Of a stretch of 34,160 nucleotides of DNA, positions 3 to 28,688 are shown in pieces (within the stretch, counting starts at the first letter, position 1; the number at the start of each line of letters is the position of its first letter). A program made the translations under genes and the position numbers. The notes under the pieces are model-generated. The model was not told the DNA's origin. It made no database searches and saw only the letters and a program-made list of their open reading frames with translations. Origin of the DNA: Minisyncoccia bacterium (GTDB lineage: Bacteria > Patescibacteriota > Minisyncoccia > Phycocordibacterales > Phycocordibacteraceae); the NCBI GenBank assembly GCA_049298935.1, contig JBAQWN010000031.1, positions 1-34,160 on the forward strand. The letters run 5' to 3'.

Positions 3-359
3 CCGTTCACCGTTGACTGTATGTATTCGGACAATGGAAAAGAGTTTAAAGGAGCTTTTAAAGCATTGTGCAGAAAGAACACCATCGTTCAGAAGTTCAC
101 CAAGCCATACACGCCACAGACGAACGGAAAGGCGGAGCGGGTCATCAAGACCATCAAGACTGAATTGCTGAAAGGTCACTCGCATCTTTCTCGAGAAGAA
201 CGCCGTCGCCACCTGTATGCGTTTGTTCGCTGGTACAACCAAGTGCGTCCACATCAATCCCTTGGAAACGTTTCTCCCATGACGTATCTAGAGGCGTATG
301 TCGCCCAAACCAAAACGGAGTTGAAATCACTCAAAAGTGTCACTAACGCGTTGACTTAG
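3..359 (+). mobile_element. IS481-type DDE transposase (integrase-core/rve fold), C-terminal portion; 5' end lies outside the window
   Basis: The frame is open from base 3 (PFTVDC precedes the listed Met). YSDNGKEF (second catalytic Asp), PYTPQTNGKAERV (catalytic Glu) and RWYNQVRPHQSLG..SP are the classic IS481/retroviral-integrase-like core motifs. The IS terminus could not be identified. Confidence 0.8.
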
Positions 360-2241: not shown

Positions 2242-2254
2242 AAAAATGCAAAGA

Positions 2255-2290
2255 CCGCCCGGCTTATACCTGGCGGCCTTTTTTTATTTT
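2255..2290 (+). terminator. intrinsic terminator closing the SPFH cassette, shared with the convergent pilin array
   Basis: CCGCCCGG / CCTGGCGG stem (8 bp, one mismatch), loop CTTATA, followed by CCTTTTTTTATTTT. It sits between convergent genes ending at 2241 and 2289. Confidence 0.6.
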
Positions 2291-2570
2291 ACATCCACCT
2301 TCCTGCCCCAATCATCGGAATTTGTTTAATACCAAACGTGCCGAGGGCGAGATTGATAATGCCATAGGCACCAAAGATGATCACAAGCCCGACAAGGCTC
2401 CACAAGATGACTTCCTTTCCCTTTCCACGCTCTGTCTCATTTCCCGCATGTATCACAAACTGGAATACACCCCACAAGAAGACAGTACACGCGACAGCCG
2501 TCAAAAGCAGAATAATCGGATTGATTATCTGCACGACGACCTTACCAAGAAACTCGTTAAGAACGGACAT
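2289..2570 (-). CDS. small two-helix membrane protein, VirB2/TrbC-like pilin paralog 6 (no signal peptide)
   Basis: Starts directly at helix 1 (INPIILLLTAVACTVFLWGVFQFV), then charged loop GNETERGKGKE, then helix 2 ILWSLVGLVIIFGAYGIINL. Same core as the four genes upstream. Confidence 0.6.
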   Translation of the reverse strand: MSVLNEFLGKVVVQIINPIILLLTAVACTVFLWGVFQFVIHAGNETERGKGKEVILWSLVGLVIIFGAYGIINLALGTFGIKQIPMIGAGRWM

Positions 2571-2573
2571 TTA

Positions 2574-2951
2574 CTACCCGCCGATCTGAACACCCGCCTT
2601 CGGTGTGCCGCCCGTGATCCCAGAGTTATTCCCGAAGCTGACCGAGCCCGTGAGAATGTTCACAAGACCCCACACCGAAACCATCACGAAGAAGCCGATA
2701 AGACCCCAGAGCATCAGACCCTTGCCCTTTTCTTTTGTTTCATCAGACCCTTGCCCAAGAATAAATACTTGGAATGCGCCCCAGACGAAGACGATGAACG
2801 CGACGGCAAAGATCACGGGGACGAACACATTGTTGATCGTACTGATAATAAACGAACCAACGTCTGATATGTTACTAACGGCCGCAAGAGAAACGAGCGG
2901 TACGGCAAATGCGGCGATAACTCCAGAGGTGATGGTGAGTGCTTTTTTCAT
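2574..2951 (-). CDS. small secreted two-helix membrane protein, VirB2/TrbC-like pilin paralog 5
   Basis: Signal peptide MKKALTITSGVIAAFAVPLVSLAA. Core VPVIFAVAFIVFVWGAFQVFILGQGSDETKEKGKGLMLWGLIGFFVMVSVWGLVNIL. Gly-rich tail. Confidence 0.65.
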   Translation of the reverse strand: MKKALTITSGVIAAFAVPLVSLAAVSNISDVGSFIISTINNVFVPVIFAVAFIVFVWGAFQVFILGQGSDETKEKGKGLMLWGLIGFFVMVSVWGLVNILTGSVSFGNNSGITGGTPKAGVQIGG

Positions 2952-2976
2952 ACTATAAGAAATGATTAATAGGTTA

Positions 2977-3004
2977 ATTGTAGCGTCTTGGCTGTATCGG
3001 TCAA
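2977..3004 (-). promoter_or_regulatory. internal sigma70-like promoter inside the pilin array
   Basis: On the minus strand: TTGACC (3004-2999), 16-nt spacer, TACAAT (2982-2977). It lies in the only sizeable gap (92 nt) of the array, 25 nt upstream of the ATG at 2951. Confidence 0.5.
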
Positions 3005-3043
3005 TACTCTCTCAGGCGATGTGGGGATAATCCAACACCCTCC

Positions 3044-3415
3044 CTAGAGCGTTGGCGGAGTTATAGCCTTACCACCTAGAGAGAGACCGAAGGTGCTGCC
3101 TACAAGAGTAACGAGGCCCCAGAAAGCGAAGATGACGACGAAACCAACTATTCCCCACATAATGAATTGTTTGCCTGTTGTGCGCGCCCCTTCATCGTCT
3201 GCCCCATAAATGAAATATTTATATACTCCAATAATAAAGGTGAAGAAGGCAATGGCGATGAGTGCCGGAACGAGAGCCTCGTTGATGAGGGTGGAAATTC
3301 CCTTGGTATACGGGGTTATCTTGTTTGTATCAATCCCTGTCTGTGCAAATGCAGTAAATGGCAGAGAGAGGGTCGACACTACTGAAGCGAGAAAAGCAAG
3401 GATGGTTCTTTTCAT
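3044..3415 (-). CDS. small secreted two-helix membrane protein, VirB2/TrbC-like pilin paralog 4
   Basis: Start moved to the internal ATG at 3415 (MKRTILAFLASVVSTLSLPFTAFA/QTG signal peptide), 4 nt after the upstream stop. Core LVPALIAIAFFTFIIGVYKYFIYGADDEGARTTGKQFIMWGIVGFVVIFAFWGLVTLV. Confidence 0.65.
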   Translation of the reverse strand: MKRTILAFLASVVSTLSLPFTAFAQTGIDTNKITPYTKGISTLINEALVPALIAIAFFTFIIGVYKYFIYGADDEGARTTGKQFIMWGIVGFVVIFAFWGLVTLVGSTFGLSLGGKAITPPTL

Positions 3416-3419
3416 GGAG

Positions 3420-3869
3420 CTAATATGAGGTTGGTGTTGGCGGAGCGCCAAAACCACCGAGCCCAAAGGAGTTTGAGACGACATTTACCAAGCCCCAGAG
3501 CGACACCATCACAACAAAGCCTATGACACCCCAGAGAATGGTCTGGTGCCCTGACGACACCTCTCCAGGGTCACCGTGAGAGTAGATGTACGTCTTAAAG
3601 ACCCCGTAGAGGAACACGATAAAAGATACAGCGAAGAGGAGCGGGACCAAGACTGAATTAATGATGTAGATAAATGTCATCGCAACGGTACAAATAGTAT
3701 TTGCTCCACACCCGCCACCCATCGCACTTCCCCCTCCAAAGCCGATTCCTATATTAAAGCCATTACCTGAAACATTAAGGCCTCCGGATACCGCAGCAAG
3801 GGCGACTGGTGGTAGGAAGAGGGTGATAATAATGGCGAGGATTGGGACGATATATATTATACGTTTCAT
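3420..3869 (-). CDS. small secreted two-helix membrane protein, VirB2/TrbC-like pilin paralog 3 (Gly-rich insert)
   Basis: Start moved to the ATG at 3869 (MKRIIYIVPILAIIITLFLPPVALAA signal peptide). Gly-rich insert with a Cys pair (GFGGGSAMGGGCGANTIC). Core VPLLFAVSFIVFLYGVFKTYIYSHGDPGEVSSGHQTILWGVIGFVVMVSLWGLVNVV. Confidence 0.65.
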   Translation of the reverse strand: MKRIIYIVPILAIIITLFLPPVALAAVSGGLNVSGNGFNIGIGFGGGSAMGGGCGANTICTVAMTFIYIINSVLVPLLFAVSFIVFLYGVFKTYIYSHGDPGEVSSGHQTILWGVIGFVVMVSLWGLVNVVSNSFGLGGFGAPPTPTSY

Positions 3870-3898
3870 ATGAGCCAAGCGTAGCATGTTATGTACTA

Positions 3899-4159
3899 TC
3901 ATTTAATACCCGGATTAATGCCGAGAGTGGATAACAACAGATTTAAGACGCCCCAGAATGAGAACATCAATACGATACCGACGAGGCCCCAGAGGATAAA
4001 CTGCTTCCCTTCCTCACGCGACTTCTCTTCACTGCCATGAAAGATGAAGTGGCTCAAGACGCCCCAGATAAATGCGGCGGCGGCGAGAGTGAAGATGGTC
4101 GGGATAACGACAAGATTAAGTGCGCTAATAATACTAGCGACGAATTGGGCGAAGGTCAT
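3899..4159 (-). CDS. small two-helix membrane protein, VirB2/TrbC-like pilin paralog 2 (no signal peptide)
   Basis: ATG at 4159 is preceded by GGGAGGAGG-ctaat. That SD is encoded by the VGGG* tail of the upstream gene, so the TTG start at 4177 was rejected. Core VIPTIFTLAAAAFIWGVLSHFIFHGSEEKSREEGKQFILWGLVGIVLMFSFWGVLNLL. Confidence 0.65.
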   Translation of the reverse strand: MTFAQFVASIISALNLVVIPTIFTLAAAAFIWGVLSHFIFHGSEEKSREEGKQFILWGLVGIVLMFSFWGVLNLLLSTLGINPGIK

Positions 4160-4160
4160 A

Positions 4161-4538
4161 TTAGCCTCCTCCCACAAGAGCCTTTACGGTCGCCTGGATG
4201 CCCATCGAGATGCCCTGCGCGCCGAGCAGGACGAGCCCTCCGATAAGGGTCCATTTCAGCATTTCTCGTGCTTTAGTGATTTCACCCGGCTCGCCTTTTG
4301 CCATGACAAATTTATATCCGACAAAGACAATCATCAAGATGAGGACGATCGTACCCATACGGATCACAAAGACGATGATACTTGCAAGAAATGATTCTAG
4401 ACTTCCTCCTCCTTGGAGAGGGTTGATGAGAGTGGTGCCGTTATTATCACCTTGCGCATGCACAGCGGGTGCAGCGCCCGCCGTGCCTAGAAGGAGCGCA
4501 ATGCCAATCAGAGAAATTACAAAGAATCGCTTGGTCAT
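4161..4538 (-). CDS. T4SS-pilin-like (VirB2/TrbC-type) secreted small membrane protein, paralog 1
   Basis: Signal peptide with AxA site (APAVHA/QG). L-I-N-P-L motif. Helix 1 FLASIIVFVIRMGTIVLILMIVFVGYKFV, loop AKGEPGEITKAREM, helix 2 LKWTLIGGLVLLGAQGI. This layout matches CPR/Gram-positive conjugative-pilin-like proteins. The ATG overlaps the upstream stop (ATGA, 4535-4538). Confidence 0.65.
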   Translation of the reverse strand: MTKRFFVISLIGIALLLGTAGAAPAVHAQGDNNGTTLINPLQGGGSLESFLASIIVFVIRMGTIVLILMIVFVGYKFVMAKGEPGEITKAREMLKWTLIGGLVLLGAQGISMGIQATVKALVGGG

Positions 4539-5836
4539 TTTTGTAGAAGCGCAGTGAGCGCGGCACCACCTGTCGTGAGTGCAGTATTAGGTGTCAGGCG
4601 TCCACTTATCACACTGTTAATCATACCTGAAAAAATTGCGTCTGTATCAGCAGGTAAAGGGGATAACCAACCAGCTGTATATAGCGCTTCGGTATAAGCA
4701 ACGGCCCCTGCGGGGTCTGAAGGAACCTCTGCGAGGGGTGTCAGACTCGCCGGCGCGAGCCCAAACGCCGAGGCGGCAACAGTCTGTGGCCCATTACCAG
4801 TGAGGAGAGCCGCCGCCTGATATGCCCCACTCTGGTTACGCGCCCCGTGCGGGATCATAAAGGCATATATGTTGCCGTAGGTACTCTTCAACGTTGCTGT
4901 CGCTAGCTGTGGCAAGAGCGACACTTGTAGATCGAGATTCGGGTTCGCCACCCTGAGGTATCGCGCTTCGGATACATAACCGATATAGAGCGCCAGATCA
5001 CCGGCGAGAAATGCTTGTTGAGAATTAGGAAGAGATGCGTTCCAAGTGTACGAAACCTTCGACGGATCGGCGAACTGGGTATAGAAGTTAAGTACCGCTT
5101 GCCCAGGCGTCGCTCCAGACGAATGACCACTCAAGTCGGCAACTAGTATGCCATTTTTATAAGAAGCAATAGGGACTCCTGTTTGAAGAAAGAATGAAGA
5201 GAGGATCGCGCGCGCGTTGCGAATATTGTCATAGGTGCCAAGAGCGACAAGGCCGCGCGTAACCTGTTTTGTGGGAGTGAAGAGTGCCGTCCTCGGGACG
5301 AGACCAGTAAATGCCTCCCAAGTCGCAGGAGGCATCGTTACACCACTCGAAGAAAGAATGGCGCGATTCGAGAAGAGAACAAGAGGATCAACGAGAAATG
5401 GAATACCGTAGTAACCGGCTCCACTAGGACTCATGAAGATTTCTCCGCCACCAATGAAAGTAGAAGTATATGCCGACACTGGGAGAGTCGAGAGAGGTAT
5501 GGGCTCAATAAACTTCGACAGAACGAGCAGACTCTCTTGCGAAGCGAGCACGAGGTCTGGTGGAGACCCAGAGGCTATCGCCGAAGTGAGGTCGACAGAG
5601 AGCGTGCGTTCATCTTTCTGTACATATGAGACGTCCTTCATAGACGGATTGTCGCGCGCAATACCAACAAGAATGTTTTGCATCTCTGTCTTCGGCAAAA
5701 CTCCCCATATAACGACCGTACCTATACCGCCTGAACCAGAATTACTACTGTTGTGTGTCGCGAAGACAAATAAGCCAATAAACGCACTGAGGCCGAAAAC
5801 ACCGATTAAAATAACTCGGAACAATGACATTTTCAT
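4535..5836 (-). CDS. membrane-anchored extracellular solute-binding protein (ABC family-1 SBP-like), orphan
   Basis: N-terminal uncleaved-looking anchor (no lipobox Cys). TVVIWGVLP...IASGSPPDLVLAS...GIPFLVDPLVLFSNR...WEAF resembles sugar/oligosaccharide SBPs. No permease or ATPase gene is adjacent. ATGA overlaps at both ends. Confidence 0.65.
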   Translation of the reverse strand: MKMSLFRVILIGVFGLSAFIGLFVFATHNSSNSGSGGIGTVVIWGVLPKTEMQNILVGIARDNPSMKDVSYVQKDERTLSVDLTSAIASGSPPDLVLASQESLLVLSKFIEPIPLSTLPVSAYTSTFIGGGEIFMSPSGAGYYGIPFLVDPLVLFSNRAILSSSGVTMPPATWEAFTGLVPRTALFTPTKQVTRGLVALGTYDNIRNARAILSSFFLQTGVPIASYKNGILVADLSGHSSGATPGQAVLNFYTQFADPSKVSYTWNASLPNSQQAFLAGDLALYIGYVSEARYLRVANPNLDLQVSLLPQLATATLKSTYGNIYAFMIPHGARNQSGAYQAAALLTGNGPQTVAASAFGLAPASLTPLAEVPSDPAGAVAYTEALYTAGWLSPLPADTDAIFSGMINSVISGRLTPNTALTTGGAALTALLQK

Positions 5837-6369
5837 GGTGCTGTAAAGATTACCCCGTAATGATGTGGCCCTGCACGAAATGATTTCACTTTGTGAAAGC
5901 CGCCATTGATAAAAAATGCCTCAGCTTCATGTTCTGGAACCACTTTATCTTTCGCAGGACCCATCCCGCCGTAGCTCCCCGCCCAATCAACAACCAAGAG
6001 TTTGCTCCCCGGCGCTAGAACGCGCAGAGCCTCTTTTAAGAGTCCGTGACGATTTTCAACTTGAAAGAAGGTATTGGCTAGAATGCCCGCGTCGAGTGAC
6101 GCGTCGCGCAGCTTGGTACCACGAGGCTTTTCAATATCGCCCCAAACCGTCTCAATGACTCGTTGGTGGTGCTGGTGACTGTTCAATTTCAAATGCTTCA
6201 AAACATCTTCCTGTACATCAATCGCATACACTTTCCCACTATGCCCAACGATAGCTGCCGCCACGCGCGCATAGTGCCCCGAGCCAGCGCCAAAATCGCC
6301 GACCTTCATCCCATCATGGAGACCCATCTGCAGCACGTTCTCGTGTGGAGAACTAAAATGTGTACTCAT
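5833..6369 (-). CDS. class I SAM-dependent methyltransferase
   Basis: Motif I VGDFGAGSGHYA, then acidic AIDVQ and post-I/II elements (LAPGSKLLVVDW). Start placed at the ATG at 6369; the track start at 6381 is TTG. The stop overlaps the SBP start (ATGA). Confidence 0.8.
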   Translation of the reverse strand: MSTHFSSPHENVLQMGLHDGMKVGDFGAGSGHYARVAAAIVGHSGKVYAIDVQEDVLKHLKLNSHQHHQRVIETVWGDIEKPRGTKLRDASLDAGILANTFFQVENRHGLLKEALRVLAPGSKLLVVDWAGSYGGMGPAKDKVVPEHEAEAFFINGGFHKVKSFRAGPHHYGVIFTAP

Positions 6370-6397
6370 AATCCTGAGCAAGTCGAAGGACTCATAC

Positions 6398-11982: not shown

Positions 11983-11999
11983 GAAGAAGTGTCAAAAAC

Positions 12000-12027
12000 T
12001 TGCGTGCGTTTACAACACGCGTACAAT
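12000..12027 (+). promoter_or_regulatory. sigma70-like promoter for lepB (possibly leaderless mRNA)
   Basis: TTGCGT (12000-12005), 16-nt spacer, TACAAT (12022-12027). The ATG at 12034 is only 6 nt after the -10 and there is no SD. Confidence 0.5.
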
Positions 12028-12033
12028 ACACTC

Positions 12034-12621
12034 ATGAACGATACTGTGAAGGGTCTTCTGAAGGATCTTTTTACGCTCGCATTCCTTATTGTAGTAGTAG
12101 TGATACCTGTTCGCATCTTTATTATCTCTCCCTTCGTTGTTGACGGAGAGTCCATGCATCCCACGTTCAAGAATCTCGATTATCTCATCATCGACGAGGC
12201 AGTTTATTACTTTAAAGATCCTGCGCGCGGCGACGTTATCGTGTTCCGGTATCCAGGCAATCCATCTATCTTCTATATCAAGCGTATTATCGGACTTCCC
12301 GGAGAAACGGTCTCGATTGATCATGGCAATCCAACCATTACAACCGAAAACGGAAAGATTCTCACACTCGCTGAACCATATATCGTAAATGAAGACGCAA
12401 CATATACAAAGAAAGTTTCGCTGGGCGATGGTGAGTATTTTGTCATGGGAGACAATCGCCCAAACAGTTCTGATAGTCGCGTATGGGGAATTCTTCCACG
12501 CAAAAACATAATCGGACGCGTCGACCTTCGTCTACTCCCTGTCAATCAAGGAGGATTCCTCCCTGGTGCAACGATCTACGAGAGCGTAACCGCCTCAACC
12601 ACACTGTCCCCAGCACTATGA
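12034..12621 (+). CDS. lepB: signal peptidase I
   Basis: Start at the internal ATG at 12034 (MNDTVKGLL.. then a TM helix). Catalytic Ser box GESMHPT, Lys box YIKRIIGLPGE, and GDNRPNSSDSR. Confidence 0.9.
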   Translation: MNDTVKGLLKDLFTLAFLIVVVVIPVRIFIISPFVVDGESMHPTFKNLDYLIIDEAVYYFKDPARGDVIVFRYPGNPSIFYIKRIIGLPGETVSIDHGNPTITTENGKILTLAEPYIVNEDATYTKKVSLGDGEYFVMGDNRPNSSDSRVWGILPRKNIIGRVDLRLLPVNQGGFLPGATIYESVTASTTLSPAL

Positions 12622-15746: not shown

Positions 15747-17018
15747 ATGTCAAAACGCGTTGAGCCAGAGATCGAGACATTTGCACGCATCCGTGTCGTT
15801 GGTGTTGGTGGTTCAGGAAAGAACGCTATTAACCACATGATCTCGTCGAAGGTGCGTGGCGTTGAGTTCGTCGCTATCAACTCTGACGCACAAGACCTCC
15901 ACCGCTCCCTCGCGAAGCGCAAAATCCATATCGGAAAGAATCTCACTCGTGGACTCGGCACCGGAATGAACCCTGAGCTCGGCAAGCGCGCGGCTGAAGA
16001 GACTCGTCAAGAGATCCAAGAAGCACTCACCGGAAGCGACATGGTCTTTATCACCTGTGGTATGGGTGGCGGTACGGGCACAGGCGCATCAGCAGTTGTC
16101 GCAAAAATCGCAAAAGAAATCGGCGCTCTCGTCATAGCAATCGTGACCAAGCCATTTGCCTTTGAGGGTGCCCAGCGCAAAGAGATCGCTGAGCGAGGTC
16201 TCGCTGAACTCAAGAAAGAAGTAGACGCTTTTATCGTCATCCCTAATGACAAACTTCTTGCGGTCGTCGATTTAAATACATCCGCACGAAGCGCCTTCGC
16301 TATGTGTGATGAGATACTGCGCCAAGCCGTCGAGGGTGTCTCAGACATCATCACGACACCAGGTGACATCAACACTGACTTCAACGACATCAAGGCGATT
16401 ATGGAAGGTGCTGGCCCTGCCCTTATGGGTATCGGTATTGCTGATGGCGACGATCGAGCGGCCGTCGCGGCGAAACAAGCAGTCAATTCCCCACTGCTCG
16501 ATGTGTCTATCAGTGGTGCAAAGGGTATTCTCTTCGTCGTCGCGAGCTCCGATGAGCTCGGTATCATGGAAGTGCAGGAAGCGGCAAAGGTTATCAACGA
16601 ATCCGTCGACAAGAATGCGCGAATTATCTTCGGTATGATGCGCGACGAGAAGCTCAAGAAGGGTCATATTCGCATCATCGTTATCGCTACTGGCTTCCCT
16701 GAAAGCGCCTCTCACGCTTCACATACAGGACCAGAACGATCCCTCTTTGCCCTACCGGTCGAGAGACGCGAAGAAGAGCGTAATCGTATTTATCATGAAG
16801 TCCTCAAGCGCGATGTAAAGGAAGAAGAAGTGAAAGTAAAAAATGAAGTGAAGACTCTATCCGTTACCGCAGAACGAGAGAAGCCGGTGATACATATCGC
16901 AAAAGAAGAACCTGTCGTCACCGCCTTACCCCACAAGCGCGATGAAGTAACTCCTATTCCTGAAGATGACGAGGCGTGGGGTGCTATTCCTTCTTTCCTG
17001 CGAAGACACAAAAAGTAA
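15747..17018 (+). CDS. ftsZ: cell division GTPase FtsZ
   Basis: IRVVGVGGSGKNAINHM and the tubulin signature GMGGGTGTGA. Long charged linker and C-terminal peptide (AIPSFLRR). Confidence 0.97.
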   Translation: MSKRVEPEIETFARIRVVGVGGSGKNAINHMISSKVRGVEFVAINSDAQDLHRSLAKRKIHIGKNLTRGLGTGMNPELGKRAAEETRQEIQEALTGSDMVFITCGMGGGTGTGASAVVAKIAKEIGALVIAIVTKPFAFEGAQRKEIAERGLAELKKEVDAFIVIPNDKLLAVVDLNTSARSAFAMCDEILRQAVEGVSDIITTPGDINTDFNDIKAIMEGAGPALMGIGIADGDDRAAVAAKQAVNSPLLDVSISGAKGILFVVASSDELGIMEVQEAAKVINESVDKNARIIFGMMRDEKLKKGHIRIIVIATGFPESASHASHTGPERSLFALPVERREEERNRIYHEVLKRDVKEEEVKVKNEVKTLSVTAEREKPVIHIAKEEPVVTALPHKRDEVTPIPEDDEAWGAIPSFLRRHKK

Positions 17019-17029
17019 CAGAGGAAACG

Positions 17030-17056
17030 CGGCGCCGAGGGCGCGCCGAGATTTTT
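17030..17056 (+). terminator. possible intrinsic terminator after ftsZ
   Basis: CGGCGC / GCGCCG 6-bp GC stem (17030-17048) followed by AGATTTTT. Confidence 0.4.
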
Positions 17057-17131
17057 AACGAGCGAAGCGACTATAAAAATCCAAGTGTACTTGTGCTCAA
17101 GGTGCCCGCGTTCTGTTATACTACTTTCACT

Positions 17132-18055
17132 ATGCTCGATTTAATAATTATCGGTGGCGGACCTGCCGGAGTAGCCACAGGCATTTATGCAGCACGCAAA
17201 CAATTAAAAACAGCGCTTATCGCCGAAGAGATCGGCGGACAATCAACCGTCTCAGAAGGTATCGAGAATTGGGTCGGCTCGGTGAAAATCAGTGGTGCCG
17301 ATCTAGCCAAATCATTTCGCGCGCATCTCGACGCCGTAAAGGGTGACTCCGTGACACTCGAGCTCGGCGAGCGTGTCGTATCACTCGTGAAAACTGGCGA
17401 CAGCTTTTCTGCAAAGACAAAGAGCGGCAAAGAATTTACCGCAAAGGCCGTACTCATCGCTTCAGGCGCAGGGCGACGCAAACTTTCTGTCCCTGGTGCT
17501 GATACCTTTGAGAACAAGGGTGTCACCTACTGTGCCTCGTGTGACGGCCCTCTCTTCTCAGGTATGGACGTTGCGGTCATTGGCGGGGGCAATGCCGGCT
17601 TTGAGACAGCACTCCAGCTCCTCGCCTACGCAAAGTCAGTCACTCTTATCCATCGGCACGCTGATTTTAAGGCAGACGAAGTAACGGTCGCAAAGGCGCG
17701 TATGCACCCAAATATGCATATCATCACGCACGCAGAGCTCACCGAGATAAAGGGCAGTCAATTTGTCACCGGCCTCGCCTATCTCGACAAAGATACGAAT
17801 GAAGTAAAAGAGATTTCTGTCTCCGGCGTTTTCGTCGAGATGGGAGTCCTCCCAAACACTGATTTTGCAAAAGACATTGTCACTCTTAATCCCTCAGAAC
17901 ACATCATCGCCGATCCACGTTCCCAGCGCACAAGCGTCGAAGGCATTTGGGCAGCTGGCGACTGTACTGACGAGCTCTATCACCAGAACAACATCGCCGC
18001 GGGCGACGGCTGTAAAGCGATCGAAGACCTCTACCTTTGGCTCAAAAAGCGATAA
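17132..18055 (+). CDS. trxB: thioredoxin-disulfide reductase
   Basis: Start at the ATG at 17132 (MLDLIIIGGGPAGVATGIYAARK, FAD GxGxxG). Redox-active CASCDG, NADPH site VIGGGNAGFE, and GIWAAGDC. Confidence 0.9.
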   Translation: MLDLIIIGGGPAGVATGIYAARKQLKTALIAEEIGGQSTVSEGIENWVGSVKISGADLAKSFRAHLDAVKGDSVTLELGERVVSLVKTGDSFSAKTKSGKEFTAKAVLIASGAGRRKLSVPGADTFENKGVTYCASCDGPLFSGMDVAVIGGGNAGFETALQLLAYAKSVTLIHRHADFKADEVTVAKARMHPNMHIITHAELTEIKGSQFVTGLAYLDKDTNEVKEISVSGVFVEMGVLPNTDFAKDIVTLNPSEHIIADPRSQRTSVEGIWAAGDCTDELYHQNNIAAGDGCKAIEDLYLWLKKR

Positions 18056-18064
18056 TCGTATCGC

Positions 18065-18799
18065 ATGTCGAATGCACCCATCATCTCAATAATCATCCCG
18101 ACACTCAGAGAGGGTGCGTTTCTAGAACGTACATTAAAAAACTTTGAGACACTCAGGATGCCTCACGAGATTATTATTGCTGACGGCGGGAGTACTGATG
18201 AGACACTTGATATTGCACGCCGTTATACCGACAAGATTGTCGTCTGGGACAAGTCGCACCGGCAGACATTCGGCGAAGCAAAGAACGCTGGTGCCGCACT
18301 CGCTACGGGAACATACTTAGTATTTATCGACGCAGACGTGATTGTCCCCGACCCTCAAGTATTTTTTGAGAAAATGATCTCGACATTCAACGTAAATGCA
18401 AAACTCGCCGGACTTACCGTACCACTCAAACCATGGCCAGAAAATAACTCTCTGGCGGACGCTTTTTTCAGTGCACCACTCAATTGGTTTATGATTATTT
18501 CAAATAACGCGCTCCGAGTAGGAACTTCTTCTGGAGAATTTCAAATGATTCGTGCCGATGATTTCAAAAAATCTGGCGGATTTAGCGAACATCTTGCCGC
18601 AGGAGAAGACAACGATATGTTCCGCCGCCTCGCGACACAGGGCCGGACATTGTCTTATTGGAGACTGAACGTACGACACTCTCTACGGCGCGCTCACAAG
18701 CTCGGATGGCTCCGTCTCTATGGTATCTGGATCAAGAACGGTCTCTCAGTGATGCTCCGCGGCAAAGCCGCCTACAAAGAATGGTCAGTGGTGAGATAA
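18065..18799 (+). CDS. family 2 glycosyltransferase
   Basis: ISIIIPTLREG...IIIADGGSTDETL...FIDAD (DxD) is the typical GT-A/GT2 N-terminal domain. Confidence 0.8.
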   Translation: MSNAPIISIIIPTLREGAFLERTLKNFETLRMPHEIIIADGGSTDETLDIARRYTDKIVVWDKSHRQTFGEAKNAGAALATGTYLVFIDADVIVPDPQVFFEKMISTFNVNAKLAGLTVPLKPWPENNSLADAFFSAPLNWFMIISNNALRVGTSSGEFQMIRADDFKKSGGFSEHLAAGEDNDMFRRLATQGRTLSYWRLNVRHSLRRAHKLGWLRLYGIWIKNGLSVMLRGKAAYKEWSVVR

Positions 18800-26525: not shown

Positions 26526-26534
26526 TTATCCACA
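26526..26534 (+). promoter_or_regulatory. perfect DnaA-box consensus TTATCCACA
   Basis: Exact 9-mer in the lysK/mraZ intergenic region, just upstream of the mraZ -35 area. Confidence 0.5.
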
Positions 26535-26585: not shown

Positions 26586-28154
26586 TTATTTCACCGCTTC
26601 GTGCAGACGGGCGATGACGAAGTCGCGCGGGAGACCGGCGAGGAACCAGCCAGCCTTAGGGCCTGAGTCGCGGTTAAGGAAGATGCGATAGATTGCTTGG
26701 AAGAGTTCTTTGGGGCTGATGGAGACACTGGTTTTCATCTCATGTAGAAGTGCATGAATGTCTTCACCCGAGCGCTCGTCGCTTTGCATAAAATCGCAGA
26801 GAGCGCCAAGTGCCTTTTTTTGAATATCTGAAAGTTCAACGTCCGGCATTTCTTCTTGCAATACATATTTAAATTCTTCAGGTGCATAGGTCGCGAGCCA
26901 AAACTTCGCATACCGCGCGCGCTCTTTGAGCGCGCGCGCCTCATCTTCAGTGAGTTGACCCCCCTTCACGCGCCCAGCTTCTTCTTCAAGTGAGAGGTGC
27001 GCCATTTGCACGACAAACGCCACCTCACGAAACCGCATCTGCCAGAGAGCAGTAAGACCCGCACGGTCAGCGGGAAGCTCGCAAAGGGCGTAGAGTCGCG
27101 TATGATCGTCAGCCGCGCCTGAACGCACCTCCTCAGCGAGCTCGTCATACCAGTCGTAGAGGCGCGGCACCGACTCGCCTGCTGGATCAACGTCGATCTG
27201 CTCGCGAATATCCTTTCCGATAAGCGTGAGACGGAACAATTGCGGCGGGAAAAGATCGCACATGTCCTTTGCACTACTCCCGCGACCTTTTGACGATGAC
27301 ATCTTCTTCCCGCCGACCAGAAAAAATTCATAGGGAATATCAAATGGCGGCTTTGTGTTAAAGATCTCCTGACATATATGCTTCGCAACATCGCGCGAAC
27401 CGCCCTTGGTCGAATGGTCTTTGCCGCCTCCCTCAATATCAACGCCCAGCGCGACCCACTTCGCTGCCCAATCTACTTTCCAAAAAAGTTTTGTCTTTCC
27501 TCCCCACGGCGCGACGCGCCCCGAGTGTCCACAACTCTTCGCCTCATCTGGATTCTTGTCACACGAATACCCAATCGTCTCGCCGTCATAGTCATAGGCG
27601 CGCGTCGTCATAATCTTGCCACACTGCTCACACACGACTGATACCGGGAGCCAGGACTCGTCTTTTACTGACCCAGACACTTCTTTCAAGATGCGACGCA
27701 CGTCGCTTGCGCGCTCAAGAGCAATCTTGATGAAAGAATCCATCTTGCCTGATTGGTAGAGCTCAGTTGCACGATAATAATTCGGAATAAAGCCCGCCTT
27801 TGTATGTACACCAACGAATTCAGCACCAAAATATTCCGCATAATTTTTGAAACCAGCTTCTGGACTCGGCACTAAATAAAGAGGTTTCCCTAGATGCTCA
27901 CGAAAAATCTCAGCATCAAGATATCCCGGTATCGAATCGAAGGGATCGAAGTCGTTCAGCTCGTAACGATATTCATTTGCGATACCATATTCAGAGAGAA
28001 TCTCAGATATGAGACCATGCGCCGCTACACCGCGCATACTGCCGACGTGTACACGGCCTGAAAGTGTCTTCTCATCACGAATAAGGAAAGTCTTCCCGTC
28101 GCGGGGCGTGCAGGTATCTCGTATTTCACTCGCTATGCGATCAGCCCATAACAT
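26586..28154 (-). CDS. lysK: class I (archaeal-type) lysyl-tRNA synthetase
   Basis: MLWADRIASEI.. N-terminus, HIGH-like SGRVHVGSMRG and KMSKS-like KMSSSKG. Length and layout match class I LysRS rather than the class II LysS. Confidence 0.9.
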   Translation of the reverse strand: MLWADRIASEIRDTCTPRDGKTFLIRDEKTLSGRVHVGSMRGVAAHGLISEILSEYGIANEYRYELNDFDPFDSIPGYLDAEIFREHLGKPLYLVPSPEAGFKNYAEYFGAEFVGVHTKAGFIPNYYRATELYQSGKMDSFIKIALERASDVRRILKEVSGSVKDESWLPVSVVCEQCGKIMTTRAYDYDGETIGYSCDKNPDEAKSCGHSGRVAPWGGKTKLFWKVDWAAKWVALGVDIEGGGKDHSTKGGSRDVAKHICQEIFNTKPPFDIPYEFFLVGGKKMSSSKGRGSSAKDMCDLFPPQLFRLTLIGKDIREQIDVDPAGESVPRLYDWYDELAEEVRSGAADDHTRLYALCELPADRAGLTALWQMRFREVAFVVQMAHLSLEEEAGRVKGGQLTEDEARALKERARYAKFWLATYAPEEFKYVLQEEMPDVELSDIQKKALGALCDFMQSDERSGEDIHALLHEMKTSVSISPKELFQAIYRIFLNRDSGPKAGWFLAGLPRDFVIARLHEAVK

Positions 28155-28231: not shown

Positions 28232-28240
28232 TTATCCACA
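28232..28240 (+). promoter_or_regulatory. perfect DnaA-box consensus TTATCCACA
   Basis: Exact 9-mer, same orientation as 26526-26534, in the divergent lysK/orphan-gene intergenic region. Confidence 0.5.
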
Positions 28241-28276: not shown

Positions 28277-28328
28277 ACGAAAGGGTGTTCTTTACTTATA
28301 GACATAACTTAATTGGGAGGAGGTGAGA

Positions 28329-28688
28329 ATGAGAACCGTCTTGAAATCGAGGGACTTTAAAATCGCCGCCGTAACAACGTTCATTACGACGATAACCCTG
28401 TCCATCGCAATCCTTGATTGGCGTTTGCCAAATGAGCAATTGCACCAGCTATCGCTATTTCTATGGATGATGACTATCGCAACATGGCTATTTGTAACGG
28501 CTTCAATAGTCGTTAAGCACGCTTCGGCACTTAACGAAGTGACTGAACAGATTGCTGACTACTTCTACTACACACCGACCGAAGCGAGTCTGGTACCAAC
28601 AAAACCAACCATCCGAGAGACGGTAAAATCAACACCGAAACAAATCGCTGAAGTCAGCAAGAAAAATCCAGCAAGAAGACATAGATAA
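28329..28688 (+). CDS. hypothetical small membrane protein (orphan)
   Basis: ATG at 28329 after a strong SD. Two hydrophobic helices, then a polar/basic tail (..KQIAEVSKKNPARRHR). AGA/AGG-rich codon usage. No family recognised. Confidence 0.6.
   Translation: MRTVLKSRDFKIAAVTTFITTITLSIAILDWRLPNEQLHQLSLFLWMMTIATWLFVTASIVVKHASALNEVTEQIADYFYYTPTEASLVPTKPTIRETVKSTPKQIAEVSKKNPARRHR

Follow-up and report, generated by a model that had tools for sequence, protein, structure and literature searches.

In 2018 Saccharibacteria were noted to carry tandem arrays of four to six genes for small, diverged, VirB2-related proteins with signal peptides (10.1101/258137). The present text concerns an array of six such genes, G1 to G6, at positions 2289–4538 on the minus strand of contig JBAQWN010000031.1 from a Minisyncoccia bacterium (assembly GCA_049298935.1); the whole 34,160-nucleotide stretch of DNA that was analysed is called the window. 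A close described counterpart is that of Ca. Southlakia epibionticum ML1, a bacterium of the Candidate Phyla Radiation (CPR), where six genes of family PF18895, SEML1_0014–0019, lie in a type IV secretion system (T4SS) locus and each is essential (Wang et al. 2023, PMC10633639). A survey by Quinonero-Coronel et al. 2025 counts 441 arrays of 2–11 pilin genes in 383 assemblies, with a mean identity of ~25% and a maximum of 54%; the arrays are commonest in Microgenomatia and Saccharimonadia, a pilin gene lies near virB4 in 1135 of 1948 assemblies, and the authors suggest host versatility, drawing on the virB2 paralogs of Bartonella and Anaplasma as an analogy (PMC12102498). Such arrays are singled out in a 2025 review as the sole VirB2-like pilins of monoderm T4SSs. 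PF18895 pilins are among the top-expressed genes of unknown function in methanogen-parasitising CPR bacteria of the Paceibacteria type (PMC10936435), and epibiotic growth requires the Patescibacteria T4SS in the single species where this was examined, the function of the system being described as “completely unknown” (PMC11665869). Papers on TM7x speak of a “Sec-secreted array” and treat its genes as “putative effectors”.

The six genes of the window are likely to encode VirB2-family subunits of a heteromeric T4SS pilus or conduit, the machinery of which would be encoded elsewhere, with a solute-binding protein (SBP) encoded directly upstream as its dedicated extracytoplasmic partner. The first-pass annotation, made from the sequence of the window, over-rated the novelty of the array, which is a further example of the kind noted in 2018, found essential in Southlakia and catalogued in 2025; what is new, and modest, is the link to the SBP, the fixed order of ancient paralogs and an internal promoter that is conserved. 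Like the window, Southlakia has six tandem same-strand PF18895 genes (~100–185 aa), alike in structure, divergent in sequence and carried by a CPR host. Its array differs in adjoining VirB6-like and VirB4 genes and in having no SBP gene in front, whereas that of the window stands apart from the machinery, behind an SBP gene, in a Paceibacteria-type genome. The window array also fits the surveyed ones in its tandem PF18895/PF04956 genes, low identity (17–46%), Patescibacteria host and the often distant virB4; as far as the accessible parts of the survey go, ordered paralogs and an internal promoter are not found there, while the window data indicate ancient, fixed paralogs.

The array is a run of six neighbouring open reading frames (ORFs), the product of each being a two-helix hairpin. 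G1 (4161–4538, minus strand, as are all six) encodes a 125-residue protein of a divergent pilin class, with a predicted signal peptide ending AVHA↓Q (the arrow marks cleavage), an NPL motif, a FV.AQG loop and a C-terminal GGG; its PF18895 score is 28.4 bits. G2 (3899–4159; 86 residues, or 92 from a TTG at 4177) has no signal peptide and starts with MTFAQF (28.7 bits). G3 (3420–3902, alternative start 3869; 160 residues) combines a signal peptide with a Gly-rich N-terminal insert and a Cys pair (30.4 bits), and G4 (3044–3415; 123 residues) has a signal peptide ending AFA↓Q (39.0 bits). G5 (2574–2951; 125 residues; 44.2 bits) is the most conserved pilin and the candidate major subunit, and the short G6 (2289–2570; 93 residues; 33.9 bits), without a signal peptide, is the final gene of the array. 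A hydropathy scan gives two long hydrophobic segments and a short charged loop between them in all six proteins; G1, G3, G4 and G5 possess an additional N-terminal hydrophobic segment with an AxA end, which is missing from G2 and G6, so that these start at helix 1. The ORFs and the scan bear out the first-pass description of six tandem minus-strand hairpin genes, four with signal peptides and two beginning at the first helix. The motifs it quoted are present as well, LINPL and KWTLIGG in G1 and GGGCGANTIC in G3, and NPL and the Cys pair are conserved in orthologues.

Pairwise identity among G2–G6 is 30–46% (BLASTP E 1e-11 to 1e-23, against a six-sequence database), and G1 shares 17–33% with the other five (best E 1e-6); one W and two G residues of the second helix are invariant in the alignment of the array proteins. 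AlphaFold2 (AF2) models place the helices of the G2 hairpin at residues 3–40 and 45–79 (pLDDT 83) and those of G5 at 28–65 and 70–103, preceded by a signal-peptide helix (pLDDT 73). The genes are tightly packed: the SBP stop overlaps the G1 start (ATGA), G1 and G2 are 1 nt apart, G2 and G3 overlap by 4 nt (ATGA), and 4 nt and 3 nt separate G3 from G4 and G5 from G6. A GGAGG motif lies 7 nt upstream of G2, within the 3' end of G1. The sole separated pair is G4 and G5, with a 92 nt spacer.

The profile search with PF18895 (T4SS_pilin) that the first-pass annotation had proposed returned all six genes above the gathering score of 26.6 bits (whole-protein), far more than chance is expected to give, and by Pfam's own criterion the predicted proteins are members of this family. 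In the array members of related loci, PF18895 is found in 123 of 124 and PF04956 (TrbC/VirB2) also in 32 of 124 (E <= 0.01; best E 9.7e-8), while every other family matches at most four of the 124. A hidden Markov model built from six annotated VirB2/TrbC proteins of alphaproteobacterial plasmids matches related-locus array members directly, down to E 3e-8; the matches are mainly first-position (G1-class) and last-position (G6-class) members, with the best among the G1 class. In an hhalign comparison of A1 with the six-sequence VirB2/TrbC alignment (E 0.0028, probability 11%) the cleavage site and both helices are aligned, and A2 gives E 0.054. For TrbC/VirB2 proper the curated cut-off is missed, and remote homology at the family level is supported. 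A profile of the six genes matched nothing relevant among PDB sequences; it matches 22,199 clusters at 50% identity (E <= 1e-3), which makes this a very large family.

VirB2 of the Agrobacterium Ti plasmid and TrbC of IncP plasmids, the PF04956 major pilins of the T- and P-pilus, resemble the window proteins in their long leader cut at AxA↓Q, two hydrophobic helices, short loop and small size, and G1 ends in ...GGG, as VirB2 does. They differ in being single-copy, encoded inside the virB/trb operon of diderms and cyclised, whereas the window proteins fall below the PF04956 cut-off and two of the six are leaderless. Another relative is the pilin-like Mbov_0395 (NF045849, cut-off 40 bits) from an integrative and conjugative element of Mycoplasma, a two-helix protein of a monoderm (MPF-FATA-type) conjugation system, to which five of the six show sub-threshold matches, G4 with up to 37 bits; unlike the window genes, it is a single-copy gene on a mobile element, and the matches stay below the curated cut-off. 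A type IV (PilA-like) pilin was considered and rejected, as the class III leader (G↓F/M-x-x-x-E) is present in none of the six and no T2SSE, T2SSF or peptidase A24 gene was found in the window.

The gene in front of the array (4535–5836, minus strand) encodes a membrane-anchored, carbohydrate-type SBP of 433 residues, matching SBP_bac_1 (58.4 bits, E 1.6e-15) and SBP_bac_8 (53.1 bits); its nearest solved relatives, remote matches all, are the oligosaccharide-binding SBPs 4r9f (E 5e-6), 7c0r and AcbH. A search for homologues of the SBP with one genome per species gave 36 loci at 24–70% identity, in metagenome-assembled genomes (MAGs) of Minisyncoccia, Paceibacterota, Kaiserbacteria, Nomurabacteria and Moraniibacteriota. 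In 35 of these the SBP gene is directly followed by two to seven same-strand pilin genes, mostly five or six, and the remaining locus ends at a contig edge. Seven further, more distant homologues (Berkelbacteria, Doudnabacteria, Falkowbacteria and others) are each followed by one to five PF18895 genes, which brings the SBP-then-pilin order to 42 of 42 evaluable loci. Upstream of the SBP lies a class I S-adenosylmethionine-dependent methyltransferase gene (MT; 5833–6381, minus strand; Methyltransf_11, E 9e-14), with which the tightly packed unit opens. MT and SBP overlap by 4 nt, stop over start, and MT directly precedes the SBP in 28 of 37 loci. Judged by gene order, the SBP is a conserved and co-transcribed partner of the pilin array.

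Pfam scans of the window show no BPD_transp or ABC_tran gene adjoining the SBP. Nor does a permease or ATPase of the ATP-binding cassette (ABC) type stand beside it in the seven distant loci with Pfam gene tables, where one ABC_tran gene occurs ~9 kb away (L042). SBP-fold lipoproteins without a permease of their own accompany the monoderm T4SS of Gram-positive conjugative plasmids, namely PrgZ of pCF10 and TraC of pAD1; both belong to the oligopeptide type (family 5) and serve regulation by capturing pheromone. The SBP of the window is by comparison carbohydrate-type (family 1), stands directly before pilin genes and is translationally coupled to G1. The link between SBP and pilins is not universal, for the Southlakia array is preceded by a VirB6-like gene instead, and Saccharimonadia seem to be without the SBP. 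No mention of it was found in the searched literature on CPR T4SS pilins, PMC10936435 included, and an SBP partner is absent from the main text and the searched supplements of PMC12102498. Two loci of the SBP set have features of their own. In one (L043, 19663–21425) the SBP is followed by a single pilin gene, whereas at least four more PF18895 genes form a second array 8 kb further downstream, past recA, efp and genes for ribosomal proteins, which shows that an array can be split. In a groundwater Parcubacteria contig (L044, 6241–9903) the gyrA gene upstream of the SBP-pilin module encodes a 1220-residue GyrA with an intein (Intein_splicing inside DNA_topoisoIV).

Three distant lineages, L037, L038 (Berkelbacteria) and L041, have the SBP-pilin module inside a PrgI/TraC-like/VirB4 cluster, an operon setting of the kind (with virB3, virB4 and virB6) that is expected of VirB2/TrbC genes. 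The order in L038 and L041 is a ~1300-residue protein, PrgI (VirB3), a TraC-like protein, VirB4 (P-loop_TraG), a ~530-residue PEGA-domain protein, the SBP, four pilin genes, two proteins of ~600 and ~330 residues and one pilin gene. L037 has a core of a 1459-residue protein, VirB4, a 462-residue protein, the SBP, pilin genes and a final pilin gene, together with an amidase/M23 peptidase gene; its ORFs at the PrgI and TraC-like positions fall outside the scan. In all three the module is flanked by VirB4-side genes on one side and by peptidoglycan-hydrolase-like genes on the other. These clusters lend support to the first-pass interpretation of the array as T4SS pilins of a CPR episymbiont. L038 and L041 also contain a T2SSE/PilB-type ATPase gene (minus strand, 16350–17888 and 16728–18266) that converges on the T4SS cluster at its final pilin gene, so that type IV pilus/type II secretion system genes adjoin T4SS genes in these two.

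A different setting is seen in ~25 loci, where a gyrA–MT–SBP–pilin string is flanked by genes for initiation factor IF-2/RbfA, ClpB, NusA, trigger factor and ClpP. Across much of the Paceibacteria, then, inheritance of the pilin module is vertical, among core genes (gyrA, ftsZ and mur neighbourhoods) and apart from virB4. The simplest reading of the SBP-pilin block is a T4SS module split from the ATPase module in Paceibacteria-type genomes, and this separation agrees with the published count of 1135 in 1948 assemblies with a pilin gene near virB4.

Each position of the array has an orthologue of its own in other genomes. The nearest loci come from Minisyncoccia, Paceibacterota and Kaiserbacteria MAGs, with SBPs at most 70% and GyrA at most 93% identical to those of the window, and the host is a Paceibacteria/Minisyncoccia-type CPR bacterium. 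In the close relatives L002–L011 (GyrA 81–93% identical, where the gene is present in the locus) the array nearly always reads G1-G2-G3-G4-G5-G6 by best match. Orthologue identity in this set is 41–65% for G1, 48–63% for G2, 51–67% for G3, 43–55% for G4, 68–79% for G5 and 57–70% for G6, generally above the identity between paralogs (41–79% against 17–46%). Remoter relatives still begin with G1 and G2 and finish with G5 and G6, with one or two copies in the middle, and G5 is 65–84% identical to 110 database homologues.

Each class also carries a signature. G1 has NPL and FV.AQG, and its class motifs are kept in 21 orthologues; G2 starts with MTF.QF and lacks a leader; G3 has C-x2-4-C, two Cys residues 2–4 positions apart that are kept in the orthologues of close relatives, and a C-terminal PTSY. 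G4 ends in YPTL, G5 contains NN(L/I)SDVGSFIINTINN, and G6 is leaderless with GAYGI. The pattern argues that the six paralogs are ancient positional orthologues rather than fast-diversifying copies. The excess of orthologue over paralog identity, the class signatures and the conservation of G5 together argue for six non-redundant subunits, a picture into which the essentiality of all six Southlakia genes fits.

A sigma-70-type promoter for G5 and G6 is predicted in the G4/G5 spacer (2977–3004, minus strand; TTGACC-N16-TACAAT), agreeing with the consensus at 10 of 12 positions, and it is probably strong. Near-identical hexamers and the 16-nt spacing are retained in seven of nine close relatives, in a spacer of otherwise variable sequence, and remoter loci have TTGACG-N16-TATTCT or TATGCT. 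A strong terminator-like hairpin after gyrA (6436–6412) separates gyrA from MT. The array is closed by an intrinsic-terminator-like hairpin (2250–2281, minus strand) between convergent genes, A-rich on one side and U-rich on the other, with a folding energy of -21.1 kcal/mol (z -3.6; none of 200 shuffles folds as well). From the promoter and the hairpins it follows that MT, SBP and G1–G4 would form one unit, accompanied by a separately driven G5–G6 pair. G5, being the most conserved and having its own promoter, is the best candidate for the major subunit, and probably is this subunit.

Upstream of the predicted G5 promoter lies a DnaA-box-like motif, TTATCCCCA (3022–3030, minus strand), which may be a site for DnaA or another regulator. 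The pattern T[ATG]TCC[AC]CA occurs upstream of G5 orthologues in 18 of 18 regions, compared with 2.7% of random windows, and at the 14 loci with a recognisable promoter the motif starts 25–26 nt before the -35 hexamer; its variants in the equivalent spacers of L002–L030 are TTATCCACA or TTGTCCACA. The 9-mer TTDTCCMCA has three copies in the window, all of them intergenic, and may be a general promoter-associated element in this organism. The other two copies, both exactly TTATCCACA, are at 26526–26534 (plus strand), upstream of mraZ, and at 28232–28240 (plus strand), between lysS and the ORF 28323–28688.

In the favoured explanation each protein would form a helical hairpin in the cytoplasmic membrane, the two termini facing outwards and the charged loop inwards, and type I signal peptidase would cut G1, G3, G4 and G5 at their AxA sites. 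The likely enzyme for these leaders is encoded at 11989–12621 (plus strand; Peptidase_S26, E 7e-44), a gene at a distance of 7.5 kb whose synteny is kept in 10 related loci. In IncP plasmids the pilin is likewise matured by a LepB-like peptidase, TraF. The subunits would then be extracted from the membrane by a VirB4-powered T4SS, its genes lying on another contig or at least 30 kb off, and assembled into a heteromeric, wall-spanning pilus or conduit that touches the host cell. G5 would be the major subunit and G1–G4 and G6 would occupy specialised positions such as base, initiator and tip, while the SBP would act as an adhesin or receptor for host glycans, or as an assembly factor.

Several results weigh against this explanation. 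In no CPR bacterium, to our knowledge, has a pilus built from these proteins been observed, and polymerisation therefore stays an inference. Close to the array, homologues of the cluster machinery genes were found within 10 kb in none of the remaining 40 of the 43 loci, and operon linkage with virB3, virB4 and virB6 is lacking in these 40 and in the window. The identity with VirB2/TrbC proposed in the first-pass annotation stands as far as PF18895 and the PF04956 matches of 32 in 124 array members from related loci reach, and falls short in that no window protein attains the PF04956 cut-off of 27.9 bits, G4 alone being listed (19.1 bits, E 0.0015). The hhalign probabilities against the small VirB2 alignment, 1–11%, are weak though topologically sensible. 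The structural check it had suggested gave the expected AF2 hairpins for G2 and G5, but Foldseek comparison of the two models with the PDB returned generic helical hairpins at E > 1, with T4SS pilins not among them; such a search cannot discriminate between folds as simple as two-helix hairpins, and the models speak neither for nor against a pilin identity.

Poly-pilins add a further difficulty. Many members of the family are single polypeptides of two to eight tandem hairpins joined by linkers of 20–40 residues and devoid of internal signal peptides, as in P0285 (820 residues), P0265 (555 residues), P0241 (336 residues), P0287 and P0271. They imply side-by-side hairpin units in the final structure and are less easily reconciled with a pilus growing by one subunit at a time.

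These same fusions suggest a bundle of defined composition, and with it an alternative in which the hairpin proteins form a membrane ring or channel of fixed stoichiometry, without a T4SS, that works with the SBP in uptake or sensing of host carbohydrate, VirB2 ancestry being merely historical. Such a complex would account for an SBP that adjoins the array in all 42 evaluable loci with no ABC permease or ATPase as its neighbour, for six positions conserved in the manner of subunits, and for a module that sits among vertically inherited core genes with any detected VirB4 more than 10 kb away in 40 of 43 loci. It is nevertheless unlikely, since the same module occurs within VirB4/PrgI/TraC-like clusters in three lineages and the Southlakia array lies in an essential T4SS locus; scattered T4SS genes moreover occur in many genomes, as the published count of pilin genes near virB4 indicates, and transport by an SBP via two-helix proteins has no precedent.

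Were the copies instead interchangeable, quickly diversifying major pilins that serve host matching or evasion of defence, the low identity within the array (17–46%) would be expected, and the analogy with Bartonella and Anaplasma put forward in PMC12102498 would apply. Those host-dependent bacteria also have several tandem virB2 copies, which are thought to serve antigenic or host-range variation; the window copies differ in being positionally orthologous and conserved across genera. Each position has a same-order orthologue with the marks of its class (NPL in G1, the Cys pair in G3, the missing leader in G2 and G6), orthologues are generally more similar than paralogs, G5 shares 65–84% identity with its 110 homologues, the array of an independent sample differs at 2 of 5377 bases, and the Southlakia genes are individually essential. 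Positional orthology, as read from these comparisons, largely refutes rapid variation, which we consider very improbable. Small secreted or membrane-active products that form no filament, whether T4SS effectors, holins or bacteriocin/immunity proteins, are the least credible of the alternatives and can be given hardly any weight. Sec-type signal peptides in four of the six and the treatment of array genes as putative effectors in the TM7x papers are compatible with them, and G3 has a match to microcin V (E 0.14), which is at chance level. Two long hydrophobic helices make soluble effectors unlikely, homology to PF18895/TrbC is consistent, and the locus is conserved among core genes by vertical inheritance. 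Holin, bacteriocin and immunity genes, neighbours that the first-pass annotation had named as pointing away from pili, accompany the arrays in none of the 43 loci, nor do genes for lysis or bacteriocin export.

The remainder of the window is a core-gene neighbourhood. Pfam scans identify genes for an SPFH protein and the methyltransferase, gyrA, the gene for S1, pth, the signal peptidase I gene, ybeY, ftsA and ftsZ, and further a thioredoxin-reductase-like gene, genes for glycosyltransferases, a Mur ligase and penicillin-binding proteins, mraZ/mraW, a lysyl-tRNA synthetase gene, greA, mreC and mreB. The lysyl-tRNA synthetase (26586–28154, minus strand) belongs to class I (tRNA-synt_1f, E 3e-84), which bacteria have less often than the other type. 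As the first-pass annotation had stated, secretion and pilus machinery is missing from the 34 kb: Pfam scans of 40 further ORFs found no VirB4, VirB6, VirD4, PilB, PilC, PilT or prepilin peptidase, and a tblastn search of the window with proteins from the T4SS clusters of other loci gave no match. T4SS genes hidden among unannotated ORFs were considered and discarded, relaxed Pfam scans and tblastn being negative. The proteins of the window are entered in the database under a contig of 34,160 bp; the window is therefore probably the entire contig, so that the missing machinery says nothing on the remaining genome.

The GC content of the array is 0.48, compared with ~0.50 for the window, and on this ordinary value and the deep synteny with gyrA recent horizontal acquisition is rejected. 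An independently assembled Logan contig (SRR28011556) also holds the array, differing at 2 of 5377 bases (99.96% identity). At the left contig end, positions 1–365 carry a fragment of an integrase of insertion sequence (IS) type (ORF 21–359, plus strand; rve_3, E 1e-20). The Logan contig, L001, parts from the window exactly at position 366 and runs into an Asp/Glu racemase gene; the integrase insertion is therefore strain-variable, and it probably broke the assembly.

For the family, the ancient, ordered and non-redundant paralogs with a candidate major subunit favour a heteromeric structure over antigenic variation and can guide structural work. As the SBP is a conserved partner of the array, its ligand bears on whether adherence, sensing or import of host material is involved. 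A bolder and tentative proposal, which we regard as possible though doubtful, is that the carbohydrate-type SBP constitutes, with five or six ancient VirB2-like paralogs in a set order, one conserved extracellular T4SS module, in which the SBP would be a pilus receptor or adhesin for host glycans or would pass host molecules to the conduit, and the G5–G6 promoter with its DnaA-box-like site would tie synthesis of the major subunit to the cell cycle. If this holds, it would be the first SBP built into a T4SS pilus, and it would hint that the essential T4SS of these bacteria works in uptake from the host, not in export.

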